From a virus (Duplodnaviria > Heunggongvirae > Uroviricota > Caudoviricetes), in IMG/VR virus record IMGVR_UViG_2529292726_000017: 10,567 nucleotides of DNA. The stretch is one strand, 5' to 3'. Below the pieces are notes generated by a model. That model was given only the letters and a program-made list of their open reading frames with translations. It made no database searches and had not been told where the DNA came from. Of the stretch, positions 1-10,567 are shown in pieces. Each line of letters begins with the position of its first letter. The first letter of the stretch is position 1. Position numbers and translations under genes: made by a program.

Positions 1-2111
<2,111 letters not shown>

Positions 2112-2140
<29 letters not shown>

Positions 2141-2836
2141 AACGCACACCTCCGGAAATACCTTCCCCAAGATGCATCAGTTCTTCGTCCGTTCGCTCCG
2201 GTATCCCGTTCTCTTCCGGTAAAAGGCTGAAATCAGCCACCGCAGCATCACTGCTGCCGGACACCATTCTCACGATCAATGCCTTCAGCGAGGCAAACTG
2301 CGCATCCATCCACACATCACTGAAGCTCTGCATCCGGAAATAATCGCCCCACTCACCAAGCTCAGTGGCTGACATTTCCGACAGCATCCGCCGCCAGTCT
2401 GCCCGCCGGAACTCCCGGGCAAGCCGCATGACAAACTGCATTTCCCGCGTCAGGACTTTTCCGGCGTCAGCACCTCATGCTCCAAATCCCCGGCATTCTC
2501 AATGGCTCCCATACCGCTCAGCGACAGAACCATCTCCGCCCCCGCTCCCAGGGCATCATACGACCATGTTGTAATAACGGATGCGCAAAGCGTCTCAACA
2601 TCCTGAGACTGTTCCGCATTCCACAGTGAGCGGGAAACCAGCCAGGCATTGATATCCATCCCCATCCGCAGAAAAGCAATCTGTCGTTCAGCCTCCGGCA
2701 GTTCTCCCTCTTCGGCATCAAACTTTGCCGTTCGCTGCTGAACAAACGCCAGATATTCAATTCTCTGCAGCCCGGACAGCTCACTGAGCACCACGGACTG
2801 CTTTTCATAATTAAACGTGCCCTGTTTCAGAAACAT
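2112..2836 (-). CDS. tail assembly chaperone G-T fusion (lambda gpGT-like), made by programmed -1 frameshift near 2456..2464
   Basis: T-frame ORF 2112..2441 (…ADWRRMLSEMSATELGEWGDYF…GGVRYG) resembles lambda gpT (WRRMLS and GGVRYG motifs). It lies in the -1 frame relative to G and is open from 2474 through the G stop. No independent RBS or start is needed. Confidence 0.7.
2450..2836 (-). CDS. tail assembly chaperone G (lambda gpG-like)
   Basis: MFLKQGTFNYEKQSVVLSELSGLQRIEYLAF… versus lambda G MFLKTESFEHNGVTVTLSELSALQRIEHLAL. Start ATG 2836..2834 with GGTGGAG 6 nt upstream; stop TGA 2452..2450. Confidence 0.85.
   Translation of the reverse strand: MFLKQGTFNYEKQSVVLSELSGLQRIEYLAFVQQRTAKFDAEEGELPEAERQIAFLRMGMDINAWLVSRSLWNAEQSQDVETLCASVITTWSYDALGAGAEMVLSLSGMGAIENAGDLEHEVLTPEKS
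2456..2464 (-). promoter_or_regulatory. candidate -1 ribosomal frameshift site (CCG GAA AAG, slippery G_GAA_AAG) at the 3' end of G
   Basis: Minus-strand sequence ...ACG CCG GAA AAG TCC TGA. Slipping tRNA-Lys from AAG to AAA enters the open T frame (GGA AAA GTC CTG ACG CGG GAA ATG CAG...). Position is equivalent to the lambda G GGA AAG site, with one substitution. Confidence 0.55.
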
Positions 2837-2852
2837 CATGTTCTCCACCTGC

Positions 2853-2876
2853 AAAAAAGCCCCGGATAACCGGGGC
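2853..2876 (-). terminator. intrinsic terminator-like hairpin between V and G
   Basis: Minus strand reads GCCCCGG-TTAT-CCGGGGC followed by TTTTTT: a perfect 7-bp GC-rich stem, 4-nt loop and 6-T run, about 20 nt after the V stop. Confidence 0.6.
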
Positions 2877-2896
2877 AAATGATGAGTATCGTCCTG

Positions 2897-3640
2897 TTAA
2901 CCTGCGGCGCTGACAGCCACCGCAGCCACTGCCACAAAATCGCCGTCAGAAGTCATGCCCACAATGCTGACACTGCCCTGCTTCACGCCTTTCACCGTGG
3001 CCACAAGCCCGTTCAGGGTCACCGTGGCAGTCTGTGGATCTGTCGAATGCACACTGATCGCTTTGTCACTGGCTCCGTCAGGTTTTACTGTAAAGGTCAG
3101 CGTGGTGGTTGCTCCCACTTTTACACTGGCAGATGCCGGTGCCACCGTCAGCCCGGTAACGCTCACTGTTTCAGTGCCTTCCTCTGCCAGATACGGACGC
3201 CCCACACCGCTGATTTTCACTGTACGGGTCATCACGTCTTTTGAGGCAATGGTTTTACCCAGTGAGCTCAGCCAGCCACGGAAAACATCAACAGTGCCGT
3301 TGGGATATTTGATACGAAACGCGCAGACTTCACCGGAGTCGAACAACTGAACCAGTTTTTTCTGCCCGCTGTCACCCGGACGCCAGGCCAGCGTCGCCGA
3401 AGTATCACCGACGGATTTCTGCCCCTGGGTTGTCGTTTTCCAGTCTGCATCTTCATCATCGAGATAAGAGTCATCTTCTGCATCAGCGGTCATTTCGCCA
3501 GGTTGCAGATCCTTCACCATCGCAAGACGCAGCCAGTCAGTGTCCGATAAAGGGTTCGCAAACGCATCGCCCTTGCCGGTGTACATCCAGAACGTCGTTC
3601 CCGCACCTTTCGTTTTTGCCAGTGGATTTGGTGTGGTCAT
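2897..3640 (-). CDS. major tail (tail tube) protein, lambda gpV-like, with C-terminal Ig-like domain
   Basis: MTTPNPLAKTKGAGTTFWMYTGKGDAFANPLSDTDW…YLDDEDADW…NGTVDVFRGW closely parallels lambda V ([36 protein letters not shown]…SYLDDEDADW…NGTVDVFRGW). ATG 3640..3638 has AGGAGG 5 nt upstream; the track's 3646 start is GTG. C-terminal ~90 aa is T/V/S/A-rich, Ig-like. Confidence 0.9.
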   Translation of the reverse strand: MTTPNPLAKTKGAGTTFWMYTGKGDAFANPLSDTDWLRLAMVKDLQPGEMTADAEDDSYLDDEDADWKTTTQGQKSVGDTSATLAWRPGDSGQKKLVQLFDSGEVCAFRIKYPNGTVDVFRGWLSSLGKTIASKDVMTRTVKISGVGRPYLAEEGTETVSVTGLTVAPASASVKVGATTTLTFTVKPDGASDKAISVHSTDPQTATVTLNGLVATVKGVKQGSVSIVGMTSDGDFVAVAAVAVSAAG

Positions 3641-3651
3641 TGCCACCTCCT

Positions 3652-4053
3652 TTAATTCGTGTACGTGATCTGGTACGTGATTTCCGCCATCGCCCAGGTG
3701 GCCATCTCATTATCACGTTGATAGTTAAAACCGAGAGGGATCAGGGTGTCGATGAGTCCGGAAAGTGCCGGTATATCATTCAGGGCCGGGAAAATGGTGC
3801 TCTCCATCCACATATCCAGCTCTGAATCCGGTGCCTGTGCCCGGATGAAGACAGCAATATGCAGAACAGCCTGCCAGTCATCTTCATCCGTCATTTTTCC
3901 GGTGTACTGAGCATCACTCAGCCACACCGCCACGGCAGGCAGTTCCTGCGCATCAATAAATGCCGGAAGCCCGTCAAAAAACGTGGCGCTGTCTCCACAC
4001 TGTTCCCGAAGGCGTGCCAGTACGGCCTGGCGGATTTGTGTATGTCGGTTCAT
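3652..4053 (-). CDS. tail terminator protein, lambda gpU-like
   Basis: MNRHTQIRQAVLARL…ATFFDG…FPAVAVWL…DIPALSGLI versus lambda U MKHTELRAAVLDAL…ATFFDG…FPAVAVYL…DIPALSDLI. ATG 4053..4051 overlaps the Z stop (ATGA); the track's start at 4065 is 4 codons upstream. Confidence 0.85.
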   Translation of the reverse strand: MNRHTQIRQAVLARLREQCGDSATFFDGLPAFIDAQELPAVAVWLSDAQYTGKMTDEDDWQAVLHIAVFIRAQAPDSELDMWMESTIFPALNDIPALSGLIDTLIPLGFNYQRDNEMATWAMAEITYQITYTN

Positions 4054-4628
4054 CGGGTCAGCCATAACCTCAGTTGTTGTTTCAGTGCATACCCCAGCTG
4101 TTTCGGCATTTCCGCAGCAATGATGCGGTCGCGGGCATCTTCAAATGCCTGTGTCAGCGGTCCGGAAAGCGGGATTTTCACCACATCAATGGGGTAACGA
4201 TTTTTGCCATCAATACGCCGCATCACATGCCAGCGACCATTCGCCAGTTGCTGAATAAACGCATCCCGGAAAAGATATTTACCCACCTTCAGCACACTGC
4301 CACGGTACTGCAGTTTTCCACCACGCCGGGCTAGTCTGACCCGGGCTGTCCCCAGCTTAATGGCGGGAAGATTGCCCCGGTTAACGCGGATCCTGGCCGT
4401 CATTTTTCCTGACGGACTGGCTTTAAACACCCGGACACGCTGACGTACCAGTTTCAGGGGGATCCCTTTCACCTGGTTATCTCCCGCAACGGTATTCCCG
4501 GCAACCTGCCGGGTGGCAACCGAGACCGCTTTCTGTGCCACACGGTTTATCGCCCATGCGCTGGCCTGTGGCACCATACGGGTATCAAGGCTGTTCAGAT
4601 TGCGGATGGCATTCTCAAGCCCCTTCAT
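4050..4628 (-). CDS. tail completion protein, lambda gpZ-like
   Basis: MKGLENAIRNL…AWAINRVA…NGRWHVMRRIDGKNRYPIDVVKIPL…LGYALKQQLR versus lambda Z …IKGLEQAVENL…NGRWHVMQRVAGKNRYPIDVVKIP…LGYALQHQLR. GAGGT RBS before ATG 4628. Confidence 0.85.
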   Translation of the reverse strand: MKGLENAIRNLNSLDTRMVPQASAWAINRVAQKAVSVATRQVAGNTVAGDNQVKGIPLKLVRQRVRVFKASPSGKMTARIRVNRGNLPAIKLGTARVRLARRGGKLQYRGSVLKVGKYLFRDAFIQQLANGRWHVMRRIDGKNRYPIDVVKIPLSGPLTQAFEDARDRIIAAEMPKQLGYALKQQLRLWLTR

Positions 4629-4639
4629 CCCACACCTCT

Positions 4640-4915
4640 TTACTCAATAAAGATCATTGGCTTACCGTTAAAACGTTCATGCCGTGTGACCGTCCATTGT
4701 TGTCCGTCATAAACAACGTGATCCCCGCGCCGTGGGCGGTATCCCGAAGAAAACACCACCAGAGAGACCGCAGGTCCGGACAGAGCATTCAGCTCTGCCA
4801 GTGTTTCGCCCGGGATCACAGCCATATCGACATCATTAATCGAGGCTGTCTTTCCCATCTTTCTGACCGTGATCGCATCCATACGCGCTGCCAGCCGGGA
4901 AAAGGGATCAGACAT
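4640..4915 (-). CDS. small head-tail connector / head completion protein occupying the lambda FII position
   Basis: 91-aa ORF between the post-capsid small protein and Z. Assignment is by position and size only; no clear similarity to lambda FII that I can recall. Start overlaps the upstream gene stop by 8 nt. Confidence 0.5.
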   Translation of the reverse strand: MSDPFSRLAARMDAITVRKMGKTASINDVDMAVIPGETLAELNALSGPAVSLVVFSSGYRPRRGDHVVYDGQQWTVTRHERFNGKPMIFIE

Positions 4916-5231
4916 TGAGTTTTACCTGCACTTCTTCTGCACTGGTTCCGGCATCTGCCCAGACAACCCCGACCAGCGGATCAGAGCCGCTGTTAGTCAG
5001 CTGAACTTTTCCGGACTTCAGATAAACCTTCTTACCCGTTTTCATGTCATCCGTTTTCAGTTTAGGCAGGATAAACACACCTTCGGTCATGCCGTCGCCT
5101 GTTTCACCCTGTGGAATATCGGTCAGCGCCACCGCAAAAACATCACCCACCTGCACCAGATCTCCGCTGCTGATGGCTGCACTGGCAACAATCGCCACCG
5201 TTTTTCCTTCTTCTACAAAATTCTTTGCCAT
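4908..5231 (-). CDS. small protein following the capsid gene, possible head decoration / cementing protein
   Basis: ORF 4908..5276; likely start is ATG 5231..5229 (MAKNFVEEGKTVAIV…) with GGAG 6 nt upstream. Gly/Val-rich, about 107 aa, immediately downstream of the capsid gene. Function is inferred from position, not sequence. Confidence 0.55.
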   Translation of the reverse strand: MAKNFVEEGKTVAIVASAAISSGDLVQVGDVFAVALTDIPQGETGDGMTEGVFILPKLKTDDMKTGKKVYLKSGKVQLTNSGSDPLVGVVWADAGTSAEEVQVKLNV

Positions 5232-5274
5232 AACTGTCTCCGCACAGCCCCGTTCAGAGGCTGATTTCAGGTAC

Positions 5275-5293
5275 AAAAAAAGCCCTTACGGGC
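5275..5293 (-). terminator. weak terminator-like hairpin + T7 run just downstream of the capsid gene
   Basis: Minus strand reads GCCC-GTAA-GGGC followed by TTTTTTT, about 25 nt after the capsid stop (5318). The stem is only 4 bp, so confidence is modest. Confidence 0.4.
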
Positions 5294-5317
5294 CATCAGA
5301 GTTGTTGTCTGCGACGT

Positions 5318-7276
5318 TTACGCCGTACATTTCACCAGACCGCGGTGATCAACTGGCGCGACACCGGCGTCAATACGCACTTTCGTTGTCACGCCATCCA
5401 CACTGAAGCCCTCCATCTGATCAATATATGGCGTATCCACACCGTTGAGATAAGCCACTTCAATCGTATCGGAGCCTTTGGACGCAGCCAGGTAGAAGGT
5501 GGTCTGGCTGTTATCATCAAGACGAGGCTCTGCAATAACGGTCGCAAAATCTTTCACCGGGTTAATAATACCGGCGTTAATGTCAGCCCCCTTGACACTT
5601 GAGGAGCGAATGACCCGGTTAGCAACAGACTCCATCGCCGTCGGTACCAGTACGAACGCAGGACGAATATTCAGATGACGCTCCCCCTCTTTCTGAACGC
5701 GCATCAACTGGCGGGCTTTATCCAGCGATGCCACGTCCATTGCAGCGCTCTCCAGTACGTTTGCATGTTTCGCTTTATCGAACAGACTTACATTATCTGT
5801 GGAGATTTTCGGGTTAGACGTCAGAATGGCATAAACCAGATCGGCAATGGTGGATTTCGCCGCACGGCCCAGCTTCATCGGGACATCGGTCAGCATATTC
5901 AGATCATCATTGATAATGGCCTGACGGGTGATACTGAACAGCTCGCCATAGGTCGCCAGTGCAATAGTGGCCTGTTTATCTCCGGTGGTGACGTATTTAT
6001 ATTCCGCCCCTTCACGCACCTGACGCAGAGCACTGAAGCCCCCCATACCCACACGATGGGCAATTTTAAAATCAGACAACTGACCTTTCCGCGTCCACTG
6101 TTCATAGGTTTCAGGAGCATCTTCCCAGCCCTGCAGAATGGCTTTGTTCGCAACATCCAGCAGAATATTACCGAAGTCAGACGTACTGTGTGTGAACGCC
6201 GCACCGACCATCTGCATCGGGTTATAACTGGAAACCCCAATACCCCGTTCAGTCAGTGACATACGGGCATATTCACGCAGGGTCATCCCGTTGTAGACAT
6301 TATCACGTTCGGTTTTTTCAAATCCGGCACGCGCCATCAGCGCCTGGCGGATCCCGTCCCCCACAAAATTACCGTTACCGGCATAAATATGAGCCGGGGT
6401 ATTTTTATTGGATGGCGTGGACTCGCGCCCCATCTCGTTCAACAGCTTTTCGCGGGCCTGCTCCAGCGAACATTCAGGATCGGCAAGACACTGAGCCTGC
6501 AGCGTCTGATAACGCCCGCCAAACATGGCAAACAGATCATTAATACCGTTTACACGCGCTTTTTGCTCTGCCAGTACCTGCGCACGGATACTGTTTTCAT
6601 CCACCACGGGTGCTGCTGCCTGCACTGGCGTCCGGGAGGCTGCAGGTTCATCATCCTGTACGCGTGGAGCACTGTTGCGTGGCGGAGTAATCATGTTTCG
6701 AATGGATTCCGGCATCTTTTTAAATTCCTCTGTACGTTTTGACTGAATACATGCCATTGCCTTAACGGCTGGCGTTACCTGATCAGCAAATCCATGTGCC
6801 AGACATTCGGCACCGGACATCCAGGTCTCATCCGCCAGCATGGCAGCAATTTCATCGGTGGTTTTCCCGGTTTTCTGTGCATAAGCGGGTAACAGAACCG
6901 CCTCAACTTTATCGAGCAGGTCGGCATAGGTGCGCATGTCCTCCGCATCACCGCCCGTAAAGCCAAATGGTTTATGAATCATCATGAAAGTGTTTTCCGG
7001 CATAATGACCGGGTTTCCCACCATCGCAATGACCGACGCCATTGACGCCGCCACACCGTCGACATAAACGGTAATGGACGCACCATGTGTTTTCAGCGCA
7101 TTAAAAATGGCGATGCCTTCAAAGACATCGCCACCCGGTGAATTAATATGGAGATTAATGTGGGTGATATCGCCCAGTGCATTCAGATCACTGATAAACT
7201 GCTTCGCTGTAACACCCCAGAAACCAATCTCGTCATAAATATAAATATCCGCGTCACTCTGGTGACCAGCCTGCAT
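5318..7276 (-). CDS. prohead protease (S49/ClpP-like) fused to major capsid protein in one ORF
   Basis: N-terminal part DIYIYDEIGFWGVTAKQF…INSPGGDVFEGIAIFNAL…VDGVAASMASVIAMVG… is S49/ClpP-like. A P/Q/A-rich linker follows, then an ~400-aa capsid-like domain ending …VAPVDHRGLVKCTA. Start taken as ATG 7276..7274, 14 nt after the portal stop (weak RBS); the track ORF extends to 7537 through the portal 3' end. Confidence 0.8.
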   Translation of the reverse strand: MQAGHQSDADIYIYDEIGFWGVTAKQFISDLNALGDITHINLHINSPGGDVFEGIAIFNALKTHGASITVYVDGVAASMASVIAMVGNPVIMPENTFMMIHKPFGFTGGDAEDMRTYADLLDKVEAVLLPAYAQKTGKTTDEIAAMLADETWMSGAECLAHGFADQVTPAVKAMACIQSKRTEEFKKMPESIRNMITPPRNSAPRVQDDEPAASRTPVQAAAPVVDENSIRAQVLAEQKARVNGINDLFAMFGGRYQTLQAQCLADPECSLEQAREKLLNEMGRESTPSNKNTPAHIYAGNGNFVGDGIRQALMARAGFEKTERDNVYNGMTLREYARMSLTERGIGVSSYNPMQMVGAAFTHSTSDFGNILLDVANKAILQGWEDAPETYEQWTRKGQLSDFKIAHRVGMGGFSALRQVREGAEYKYVTTGDKQATIALATYGELFSITRQAIINDDLNMLTDVPMKLGRAAKSTIADLVYAILTSNPKISTDNVSLFDKAKHANVLESAAMDVASLDKARQLMRVQKEGERHLNIRPAFVLVPTAMESVANRVIRSSSVKGADINAGIINPVKDFATVIAEPRLDDNSQTTFYLAASKGSDTIEVAYLNGVDTPYIDQMEGFSVDGVTTKVRIDAGVAPVDHRGLVKCTA

Positions 7277-7289
7277 CCTGAACCAGGAA

Positions 7290-8798
7290 TTATTCTTCGG
7301 ACTGGTCGTCGGTGTGCTGCGGCTCCTGTCGTTTCGTTGCGGCACTGCTGCCTCCTTTATCACTGGCCGGATCGGTATCAAATACCAGATCCAGCTTGCG
7401 GTTTTCATCAATTTCGGCCTTGCGCCGACGTTTGACATCATCCGGATTACGACCACCTGCACGTACCCAGTCTGATTCTGTCGCCGCTCCACCACGAATC
7501 TGGATTTTCCAGGCCTCAGCCTCCTTAACAGGGTCAATCCACGGCATCACCGGTCCGGAATACACCGCGGTATACAGTGAAGAACGGTCAAGATCGCGGG
7601 GTAGCCTGATAACACCGGATGCCACAGCCTGTTTCAGCCAGGCACGATACATCGGGCGGGTGACGGCACCAATAAACCAGTCCTGCAGGATCAGGTAGCC
7701 ATCAGTAGACTCAACCAGTTCCTGACGCTGGGCGCTGTAAGTGCCGTTATAGTTGCGTGCCGTACTGGAAAAACTCAGACGACTGCCCGCCGCCACGGCA
7801 CGCAACTGACCATTACGAAAAGTTTCAAGGTTAGGATTGGGACGATCCGACTTCACCATTCCGATTTCTTCGCCGGGTTTCAGATCGTCGTAAATAATGC
7901 CTGGCTGAATGGTAAGCTCGCGTTCATTCTCCTTGCTGCCATTACCATCCGGTTCATAGCTCTGCCCGTCGCCTTTCCGGATGTACATCCCCAGAGCAGC
8001 GGCGATCCTTGCTGCAGTCAGCTCAGAATCTTCATACTCTTTCAGGGCACTGAGGCGGATCAGCACACCGGACAACAAAGACGTCCCGCGCATCTGGTGC
8101 AGACGGCGAACAAATTTAAGATGCAGCATTCGCTCTGCATCCACTTCTTTGGTTTCCATCTGCCGCCCGGATACGGGACGGCTTTTATACACCAGATATT
8201 TTTCGGGACGCCCCCAGTCATCAACAAACACGCCCTGATTCAGCCTGTTGCTATCATCACTGGTCATGGGAATAAAGTCCGGCTCGAGCGCCTCCAGCCA
8301 GAAATTAACACCGGCAGAAGGCGTCAGGCTGTTTATGCGCCCGGAAACCATCTGGGCAAACACCTCACCATCGCGCAGCCAGGTACGCAGCATCAGACGT
8401 TCCAGCATCGGACGGGTAAACTGCCCGGTGACTTCCGGACTGACAGACCATTCACTCCATCGGGTGCGAATCTCCGCAGCCAGGTCACGGGCAATGGCCC
8501 CATTGCGTAATACCGGATGTGGCTCGACAATAATCCCGTTTTTCCCCACCACCCGTTCTTCCAGCTTGTCAAATACACCAATAACCAGATCGTGGTTGTT
8601 ATCAAGGTAACGGGCCTGCTCACGTAACGACACGGCCCCGTACTGGCTTAACTGGTCGGCAGTTCGGTTTTCCCGCCGGGCTTTGTGTGTCCGCGTCGTT
8701 TTTACGGCCTCATAAGCCTGGATCACCGCACGGGAACGCAGCCTTGCCGCTTTCCATCCTGGTGAAAAAACGCCAATCACATCATCAAGAATAGCCAT
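7290..8798 (-). CDS. portal protein (lambda gpB family)
   Basis: 502 aa from ATG 8798..8796 (MAILDDVIGVFSPGWKAARLRS…), GAGG 5 nt upstream; the ATG overlaps the W stop (TGATG). Size and position (after terminase and W, before protease) fit a portal, with scattered gpB-like motifs. The track ORF begins 24 codons upstream at 8870. Confidence 0.8.
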   Translation of the reverse strand: MAILDDVIGVFSPGWKAARLRSRAVIQAYEAVKTTRTHKARRENRTADQLSQYGAVSLREQARYLDNNHDLVIGVFDKLEERVVGKNGIIVEPHPVLRNGAIARDLAAEIRTRWSEWSVSPEVTGQFTRPMLERLMLRTWLRDGEVFAQMVSGRINSLTPSAGVNFWLEALEPDFIPMTSDDSNRLNQGVFVDDWGRPEKYLVYKSRPVSGRQMETKEVDAERMLHLKFVRRLHQMRGTSLLSGVLIRLSALKEYEDSELTAARIAAALGMYIRKGDGQSYEPDGNGSKENERELTIQPGIIYDDLKPGEEIGMVKSDRPNPNLETFRNGQLRAVAAGSRLSFSSTARNYNGTYSAQRQELVESTDGYLILQDWFIGAVTRPMYRAWLKQAVASGVIRLPRDLDRSSLYTAVYSGPVMPWIDPVKEAEAWKIQIRGGAATESDWVRAGGRNPDDVKRRRKAEIDENRKLDLVFDTDPASDKGGSSAATKRQEPQHTDDQSEE

Positions 8799-9010
8799 CA
8801 GAACCTCGCCAGCCGGTACCCGGGATGCCCCCGTCGTCGTGTAATCAGAGCCGCAAGGCGGCGCTCCCACTCCTGCCGTCCCTGCCGGATCTCAGATAAG
8901 TTTTCCATGGTCATCTGCTGACCATTAAAGGTGACGGATTTTCCGTCCAGCACCGCCATTTCAGCTTCCGTATAACGCTGAATCATGGCTTCGATATCAT
9001 TCTGGTTCAT
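8798..9010 (-). CDS. head completion / head-tail joining protein, lambda gpW-like
   Basis: MNQNDIEAMIQRYTEAEMAVLDGKSVTFNGQQMTMENLSEIRQ…RRRGHPGYRLARF has the size and C-terminal RRRG motif of lambda W (…QRRRGPAGFYV). ATG 9010..9008 has GGAGG 6 nt upstream and overlaps the terminase stop (ATGA). Confidence 0.75.
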   Translation of the reverse strand: MNQNDIEAMIQRYTEAEMAVLDGKSVTFNGQQMTMENLSEIRQGRQEWERRLAALITRRRGHPGYRLARF

Positions 9011-10239
9011 AACCATCCTCCGGAAGTCAGCCAGGGGTTAACATCGTCAGTTACTGTTTTCTTCCGTTTTTGTTTTTTAACAGGCGTGGATACCGGTTCC
9101 GGTGAGGGTGACGGTTCGGTACTGTCCGGGACACACTCCAGCCAGGTTTCCCGGCTCGCCCACTCCGGTGCATCCGGCCAGCGGATCTTTTCGTATCCAT
9201 GCAGAATGACCAGAGCCTCGGCATACACCATCAGGTCAAAAGCTTCGTTGGCACCGCGACCCGGCTTACTCCATTTCCCGTCACTACTCCGCTCTTCATA
9301 CGTCAGTTCGTCGTAAAACCAGCTCCCCAGCCAGTCAGGGAAATGCACATAGCCGGGACCTGGCGAGTCACGCCATAACGCGTTATTCACCCGGTCTTTC
9401 AGGGCATCCGTCTGAAGAAGCCAGAGCGGCACATCACCTGCGGCCTGCGCCCGTCGGCCCGTTCGTCCGGTGTTATCAGGGAATGTACGGGTGATCAGTT
9501 TTGCGCGCCGGATGCTGTCGCCCTTAAACAGGTAAATACGTTTACCAAGGCCATCACGACGGCAACGACGCCAGAATTTATAGGCATTATCAGTGACCCC
9601 GTCTTCACCGCCGGAGTCCACCGCCATTGCCATCAGTCGCATTTGTTGAGAAGGATCGGAGGCCAGCGGCCAGCTTTTATGAAAAACATCCGTCAGCAGG
9701 ACATCCCAGTCTTCCGGATAGCTGGCCGGATCAATTCGCTGGCTCTCCCCGTCGCTGTCACCGCGCAATGACTGCGTGATGTTGTAACGATCAATAATCC
9801 AGCGTTCGCCACGGCTGCCATAGCCCGTTACCTGAACCACAAAACGGCGATGACGTCCCGCCTGCACATCAACTGTCGCCACCAGGAAATTAACGCCATC
9901 CGGCACACTGCGGGAAGGAACTGGCTCTGCCCGCTGCTCAAGCAGTTCACTTTTTCGTTGCTCCATGCTGACACGGGGAAGATAAGGTAATCCCCAGTCG
10001 GTATTGATAACCGTCTTGAGTGTTTCTTCACTTCCGGTTGTCTCGTATTCCTGTTCTGCAGTAAGCAGTTTGTAAACGAGTTGCGAGAGTGTCTGGTAAG
10101 CAGCTGCCGGACCCTCCATCCAGAATGACGCAATACGTGAGCGTCGGGGATCACCATAACGACTGCCATCCGCATTGATGGATTCACCATCCCGCAACCA
10201 GACCCCACGTCCGTTCAGCTCACGTTTTTGTTCAGGCAT
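9007..10239 (-). pseudogene. terminase large subunit (lambda gpA-like), C-terminal ~410 aa only; N-terminal ATPase region absent
   Basis: …GVWLRDG…TDWGLPYLP…FLVATVDVQ…RFVVQVTGYG…WIIDR… is colinear with lambda gpA from about residue 280 to the end (lambda GIWTRDG…, YLTAGIDSQ…, MRVWGWG…, WLIDRQ). The frame has a stop at 10293..10291 and nothing resembling the gpA N-terminal 280 aa lies upstream; a plus-strand ORF occupies that space instead. Confidence 0.8.
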
Positions 10240-10380
10240 AATCCGTCCTGAACATATGAGACGACAATAACTCAGTCCGCCTGGCGCCGATTATTCTGGC
10301 CGGTTTTGTAACCTGAGTGTCATTTACATGATCCAACAGGAAATGGCGTGACGCTCAATACTTCTCAGGTCAGTTACTAT

Positions 10381-10567
10381 ATGACTCAGCGTAAGAAAGG
10401 TATAACTCAGCATATCTCGGCCATGAAGGCTGGTATCTCAGTCCGTTCTGGTCGTCGGATCGAAAAAGGAGAGTGGGCAAAAAACAGTGTTCGGCACTGG
10501 CGCACACGCAAAGATCCTCTGGAAGCTGTGTGGGACAGCATGCTTGTTCCTCTGTTGAAAGAGAGGC
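10381..10567 (+). CDS. HTH-containing protein, N-terminal 62 codons (partial); possible transposase (IstA-like) or regulator
   Basis: ATG at 10381; translation MTQRKKGITQHISAMKAGISVRSGRRIEKGEWAKNSVRHWRTRKDPLEAVWDSMLVPLLKER. Predicted helix-turn-helix around ISAMKAGISVRSGRRI, laid out like the IstA HTH ([17 protein letters not shown]). Identity not established. Confidence 0.4.
   Translation, partial: MTQRKKGITQHISAMKAGISVRSGRRIEKGEWAKNSVRHWRTRKDPLEAVWDSMLVPLLKER

Follow-up and report, generated by a model that had tools for sequence, protein, structure and literature searches.

A lambda gpA-type large terminase gene (terL, 700 codons) of an E. coli lambdoid prophage has, with very high probability, been interrupted by transposition of the insertion sequence ISEc10. 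The window, meaning the whole stretch of 10,567 nucleotides analysed here, holds only one side of this interruption, and the terminase fragment within it is a disrupted member of the gpA family, a pseudogene in two pieces, since the ATPase domain is encoded by a separate ORF. A sequence-only reading of the window had concluded that the N-terminal ATPase region of the terminase is missing and that there is no small terminase upstream. Neither conclusion survived comparison with the closed E. coli chromosome CP025886.1, in which the first 287 codons of terL lie across a 2,410-bp ISEc10, making this an interruption with no loss, and a DUF1441/PHROG 141 gene for the small subunit is present beyond the element.

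An exact look-up with the truncated tape-measure protein identified the reverse complement of contig APXK01000088.1 (GCA_000356245.1) as the window (10,567/10,567 positions identical); the window is an entire short-read draft contig, and its two ends fall inside insertion sequences, one after 313 nt of ISEc10 and one after 340 nt of IS100. Multi-copy insertion sequences are the usual break points of short-read assemblies, and because this contig was broken inside repeated IS sequence, the window shows only half of terL. The apparent absence of the ATPase half and of the small subunit is an edge effect. When the 410-aa protein encoded by the fragment was looked up by its exact sequence, 4 contigs were returned, one of which is the closed chromosome CP025886.1 (4,998,347 bp), and this chromosome proved identical to the whole window (10,567/10,567). 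The far side of ISEc10 was read in CP025886.1, while the draft assembly GCA_000356245.1 supplies the window contig. The search of the flanking genome that had been proposed for the 5' part of terL and for the small-subunit gene located both of them across ISEc10 in CP025886.1. Among 5,426 complete RefSeq E. coli genomes, none covered the junction between terL and ISEc10 (window 10050-10460). A contig that terminates in a repeat is silent on the DNA beyond it, and claims that something is missing at the edge of a window need a closed relative. The features of the locus are collected in Table 1.

Table 1. Features of the interrupted terminase locus and of the neighbouring insertion sequences (window coordinates unless an extract of CP025886.1 is named).
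Feature	Position	Strand	Remarks
IS100 (IS21 family) end	1..340	- (istA)	istA ATG at 254..252; other end of the window
Tape-measure gene	341..2140	-	interrupted by IS100 after codon 600 of 1,021
gpW-like head-tail adaptor gene	8798..9010	-	PHROG 118 head-tail adaptor, E=1.4e-37
terL 3' fragment, codons 286-700 and stop	9007..10254	-	complete gpA-type endonuclease domain
Longest ATG ORF in terL fragment, 410 aa	9007..10239	-	start is native Met291
Target duplication copy TGAACA, 6 bp	10249..10254	.	terL nt 856-861, codons Cys286-Ser287
ISEc10 (IS21 family) left end, 313 nt	10255..10567	+	terminal inverted repeat starts TATGAGACGACAA
In-frame TAA closing the terL frame upstream	10291..10293	-	inside ISEc10 sequence (translation from 10320)
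istA transposase start, GTG	10348	+	first 73 codons, then off the window
DUF1441 small-terminase gene	CP025886.1 extract 6224..6715, outside the window		PHROG 141 'terminase small subunit', E=1.5e-76
IS66-family element, ~2.45 kb	CP025886.1 extract 14014..16466, outside the window		in the tape-measure gene, 259 bp beyond IS100

Translation from position 10254 down to 9010 yielded 415 aa, for which the sole Pfam match was GpA_nuclease (PF20454, E=3.2e-86), covering the profile from end to end (1-294/294) and residues 41-359 of the fragment; no ATPase domain (GpA_ATPase, PF05876) was found by Pfam in this 415-aa stretch of the window. The same fragment matched PHROG 15 (terminase large subunit) at profile positions 608-985. 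The claim that only the C-terminal ~410 aa of a gpA-like terminase is present was thus borne out, as the minus-strand ORF 9007..10239 encodes GpA_nuclease and lacks the ATPase domain. The frame had been said to close at 10293..10291, where a TAA is indeed read on the minus strand, and the DNA upstream, described as unrelated and on the other strand, was identified as the left end of ISEc10 (10255..10567), with the istA GTG at 10348 on the plus strand. Terminase homology does not begin at the ATG (10239) of the 410-aa ORF; it extends beyond it to 10254, which is nt 856 of terL, leaving 415 native codons. Compared with the uninterrupted terL of strain 510016 (2,103 nt), the window fragment has 0 mismatches over nt 856-2103. 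An AGGA lies 8-11 nt upstream of that ATG, and both are internal terL coding sequence. No sigma-70-like promoter was detected when both strands of 10100..10567 were scanned, and NCBIfam gave no match for the DUF1441 protein or for terL, whether intact or as the fragment. The translated fragment aligned with lambda gpA at 29-31% identity. No full-length terminase ORF could be read across 10240..10567, and the 410 aa do not make up a complete short terminase, since in the 700-aa protein they correspond to residues 291-700. For annotation, the consequence is that the fragment should be labelled as half of an IS-interrupted terL pseudogene and should not be taken to show a deleted packaging module.

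When window positions 8800..10567 were compared by megablast with complete E. coli genomes, 2,573 genomes were matched, and 1,303 of these matched query positions 1-1455 (82% query coverage), all stopping at window position 10254; a chance pattern is excluded as the cause of this common stop. The context of terL was inspected in two genomes, strain 510016 and E2348/69, and in both the DNA that matched belongs to a CDS of 2,103 nt with the annotation 'phage terminase large subunit', in the order DUF1441 gene, terL, 70-aa gene, portal gene, and ClpP-protease/capsid fusion gene. In the intact 700-aa protein, Pfam assigns residues 41-304 to GpA_ATPase and residues 326-644 to GpA_nuclease. The Walker A motif, GPARTGKT, aligned with KSARVGYS of lambda, is found in the N-terminal fragment, and the Walker B region, also within the first 200 residues of terL, belongs to the same fragment.

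In CP025886.1 the corresponding order is DUF1441 (163 aa), an ORF with GpA_ATPase (288 aa), istB, istA, and the 410-aa ORF with GpA_nuclease, followed by the gpW-like adaptor (PHROG 118) and the portal (Phage_portal_2), so that terL occupies its place between the small-terminase gene and the W-like adaptor and portal. The 5' piece of terL comprises nt 1-861 with 0 mismatches to the intact 510016 allele, and it matched PHROG 15 at 332-603, adjoining the match of the 3' piece at 608-985. Its ORF extends into ISEc10 by one codon before the stop (...IQCPSCS-Y-stop) and would give 288 aa. The protein encoded by the DUF1441 gene matched PHROG 141 from end to end and showed a weak N-terminal helix-turn-helix match (PF13556); its RefSeq name is just 'DUF1441 family protein'.

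Downstream of the terL fragment, the position of the gpW-like adaptor gene corresponds to the normal terL-W-portal order. The adaptor ATG and the terL stop overlap as ATGA (9007..9010), an arrangement that suggests translational coupling between terL and the adaptor. In RefSeq genomes the PHROG 118 adaptor is listed as 'hypothetical protein'.

The element at the end of the window was assigned by its near-identity to annotated copies: 870 E. coli genomes have annotated ISEc10 copies that are 99.1-99.4% identical to window positions 10240..10567, and the element is 99.9% identical to the copy in CFT073 (blast span 2,416 nt), which is annotated 'IS21-like element ISEc10 family transposase' and has istA at IS position 94 (window 10348). 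The part within the window is identical to the copy in strain 510016 (313/313). As is typical of the IS21 family, in which istA is a transposase with helix-turn-helix and DDE domains and istB an AAA+ helper, the element in CP025886.1 encodes istA (499 aa; PF22483 Mu-transpos_C_2 and PF27155) followed by istB (251 aa; PF01695 IstB_IS21), and it forms a 2,410-bp insert with TGTTCA on both sides (coding strand) after codon 287 of 700. The intact terL contains a single copy of this hexamer (...CCTTCC TGTTCA GGACGG...), and the interrupted gene reads ...CCTTCC TGTTCA (TATTAGACG...2,410 nt...CGTCTCATA) TGTTCA GGACGG.... In the orientation of the window, the right end of the element is ...GTTGACGTCTAATA, and at a simple-insertion junction this end would be followed directly by TGAACAGGAAGGACACTGAATATAAGCC; terL read from nt 861 downwards is TGAACAGGAAGGACACTG, the flank expected beyond the right end of ISEc10 under simple insertion. 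The inverted repeats, TATGAGACGACAA and TATTAGACGTCAA, match at 10/13 positions and are imperfect.

Ends of IS21-family elements are usually 5'-TG...CA-3' in ISfinder descriptions, which is a tendency and no strict criterion. Two reciprocal empty-site comparisons placed TA...TA as the outermost bases of ISEc10 (window 10255..10273 and, for the other end, CP025886.1 extract 7576..7594), with TG at positions 3-4, so the element does not have TG...CA ends; CA does form the last two bases of the IS100 end in the window. The assignment to ISEc10 is carried by istA together with istB, the near-identity to annotated copies, the inverted repeats, and a target duplication defined against an empty site. 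A left end that starts with TG, TGAACATATGAG..., had been considered from blast matches beginning at 10246-10249, and it was rejected in favour of a start at 10255, since the CFT073 flanks (TGACCT) and the reciprocal empty site show these earlier match starts to be chance similarity of the flank. The length of the target duplication varies among the copies: 5 bp is apparent in CFT073, where no empty site was seen, with 6 bp in terL and 7 bp in 510016. ISEc10 is known to alter E. coli genes through new insertions, which were seen near lpp when strain CFT073 was under selection in the laboratory (PMC7482066).

The arrangement in CP025886.1 shows the course of the interruption. ISEc10 entered terL after codon 287, within a Cys-rich motif (CPHCG...CPSCS) on the C-terminal margin of the ATPase domain, with duplication of 6 bp of target (TGTTCA, coding strand). 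The promoter-distal piece of terL, with the nuclease domain, together with the first 313 nt of ISEc10 is the part seen in the window, and in CP025886.1 the promoter-proximal piece, with its predicted 288-aa product, and the small-terminase gene lie intact across ISEc10. The terminase holoenzyme is predicted to be non-functional, since the ATPase and the nuclease would be on separate polypeptides, the break falls within the ATPase domain, and the 3' piece has no promoter-like site; the prophage would then be without DNA packaging. The insertion in terL evidently happened recently, to judge from both halves being 100% identical to the uninterrupted allele, and the perfect 6-bp target duplication indicates a simple insertion in which nothing was deleted in CP025886.1.

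The tape-measure gene, at the opposite end of the window, is likewise interrupted. Its ORF reads 19 codons into IS100, which in CP025886.1 is a simple 1,954-bp insertion with a 5-bp target duplication, and further along the same gene this chromosome carries the IS66-family element, with three ORFs (HTH_Tnp_1, TnpB_IS66 and DDE_Tnp_IS66) and a flank overlap of 8-9 bp. Beyond the IS66-family element, CP025886.1 has the distal tail genes M, L, K, I and J, the last of which appears to be called in two parts, ORFs of 331 aa and of 795+ aa. The prophage is probably defective, in part because the tape-measure gene carries IS100 and, in the closed genome, the IS66-family element. The same verdict had been reached in the sequence-only reading, and it stands as probable, as the locus cannot yield an intact large terminase, but the ground offered for it, a missing ATPase region and small subunit, does not.

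Sister strain 510016 carries a close relative of this prophage, in which terL is intact. Over ~9.8 kb, only 2 SNPs (window 1846 and 5060) separate it from the window, with which it shares the IS100 junction. Its copy of ISEc10 is identical (2,410/2,410) and lies in the opposite orientation in the tape-measure gene, at window 429/430, flanked by a 7-bp duplication, CGCTGAT (extract 6430..8839); the corresponding empty site is found in the window at 422..429 (ACGCTGAT). The two isolates thus have ISEc10 at different sites of the same prophage, separated by ~9.8 kb, and the site occupied in one isolate is empty in the other. Beyond IS100, the 510016 extract (1..6000) contains IS2 followed by yfdQ/yfdR-type genes, and no tail genes or remainder of the tape-measure gene. 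The comparison of the two genomes implies an IS100-associated rearrangement or deletion in 510016 that is absent from CP025886.1. A deletion of the distal tail genes by IS100, which 510016 had seemed to suggest, was rejected, as IS100 in CP025886.1 is a simple insertion and the tail genes are present. Set beside these 2 SNPs, the closed genome has three IS insertions; IS movement outpaces point mutation in this lineage, and the locus adds one more case of a prophage inactivated by IS elements faster than point mutations accumulate.

Several other accounts of the truncated gene were weighed against a simple insertion of ISEc10. IS21-family elements can cause adjacent deletions, and a true deletion, for example one mediated by the IS, could have removed the 5' 855 nt of terL together with the small-terminase gene; there is no terminase sequence upstream of 10254 within the window, and the DNA beyond IS100 is rearranged in 510016, so the lineage does undergo such changes. 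However, CP025886.1 has terS and terL nt 1-861 directly across ISEc10 with a perfect 6-bp duplication, and the window stops in ISEc10 merely because it is a whole draft contig. Since the 10.5-kb identity to this closed genome includes both IS junctions, and the target duplication there is perfect, a deletion in the draft isolate is very unlikely. An assembly chimera at the contig end might also be suspected where a short-read contig ends in a multi-copy repeat, as the window does, but a closed 4.998-Mb chromosome contains the same junction and has its counterpart, together with the target duplication, on the opposite side; the junction recurs in further independent contigs, and a chimeric origin of the junction between terL and ISEc10 is scarcely credible.

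The 410-aa protein could also be regarded as naturally short and complete, either a stand-alone nuclease or a short terminase, given a clean ATG ORF with AGGA upstream and a complete nuclease domain that gene callers do call as a gene. Against this, its DNA is 100% identical to codons 291-700 of a 700-codon gene, native homology runs 15 nt past the ATG to the ISEc10 boundary with no promoter-like site upstream, and the exact match occurs on 4 contigs only, compared with 1,303 genomes that match the region, of which the two inspected have a 2,103-nt terL; this reading is highly improbable. There is, finally, a slim chance that more than a plain insertion is at work, in that ISEc10 hops locally or prefers the prophage morphogenesis operon, a reading that draws on the coincidence of the two sites in the two isolates, or that the orphan 410-aa fragment is expressed and kept as a stand-alone nuclease. 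A recent, simple insertion of ISEc10 into an otherwise undamaged terL is the explanation that we prefer.

Compared with known systems, the window fragment resembles the lambda gpA-type terminases (PF05876 plus PF20454) in having a full GpA_nuclease domain. This fragment has 99.3% DNA identity to the lambdoid prophage of E2348/69 and 100% to the intact 510016 allele, and both of these prophages share the same terS(DUF1441)-terL-W-portal-protease/capsid order. In contrast to an intact gpA-type gene, terL is here split after codon 287 into ORFs of 288 and 410 aa, and when set against lambda itself, the intact terL is ~29% identical to gpA and its small subunit is of the DUF1441 type, whereas that of lambda is Nu1. 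The element does not differ from ISEc10 of CFT073, and the insertion site (terL nt 856-861) alone is particular. A prophage gene interrupted by an IS is an already known and commonplace kind of prophage decay, and this prophage, like the IS-riddled cryptic and defective lambdoid prophages of E. coli and Shigella, carries several insertion sequences in its morphogenesis genes; unlike in those prophages, the decay here is very recent, as the target duplications are kept and the interrupted genes are otherwise undamaged.
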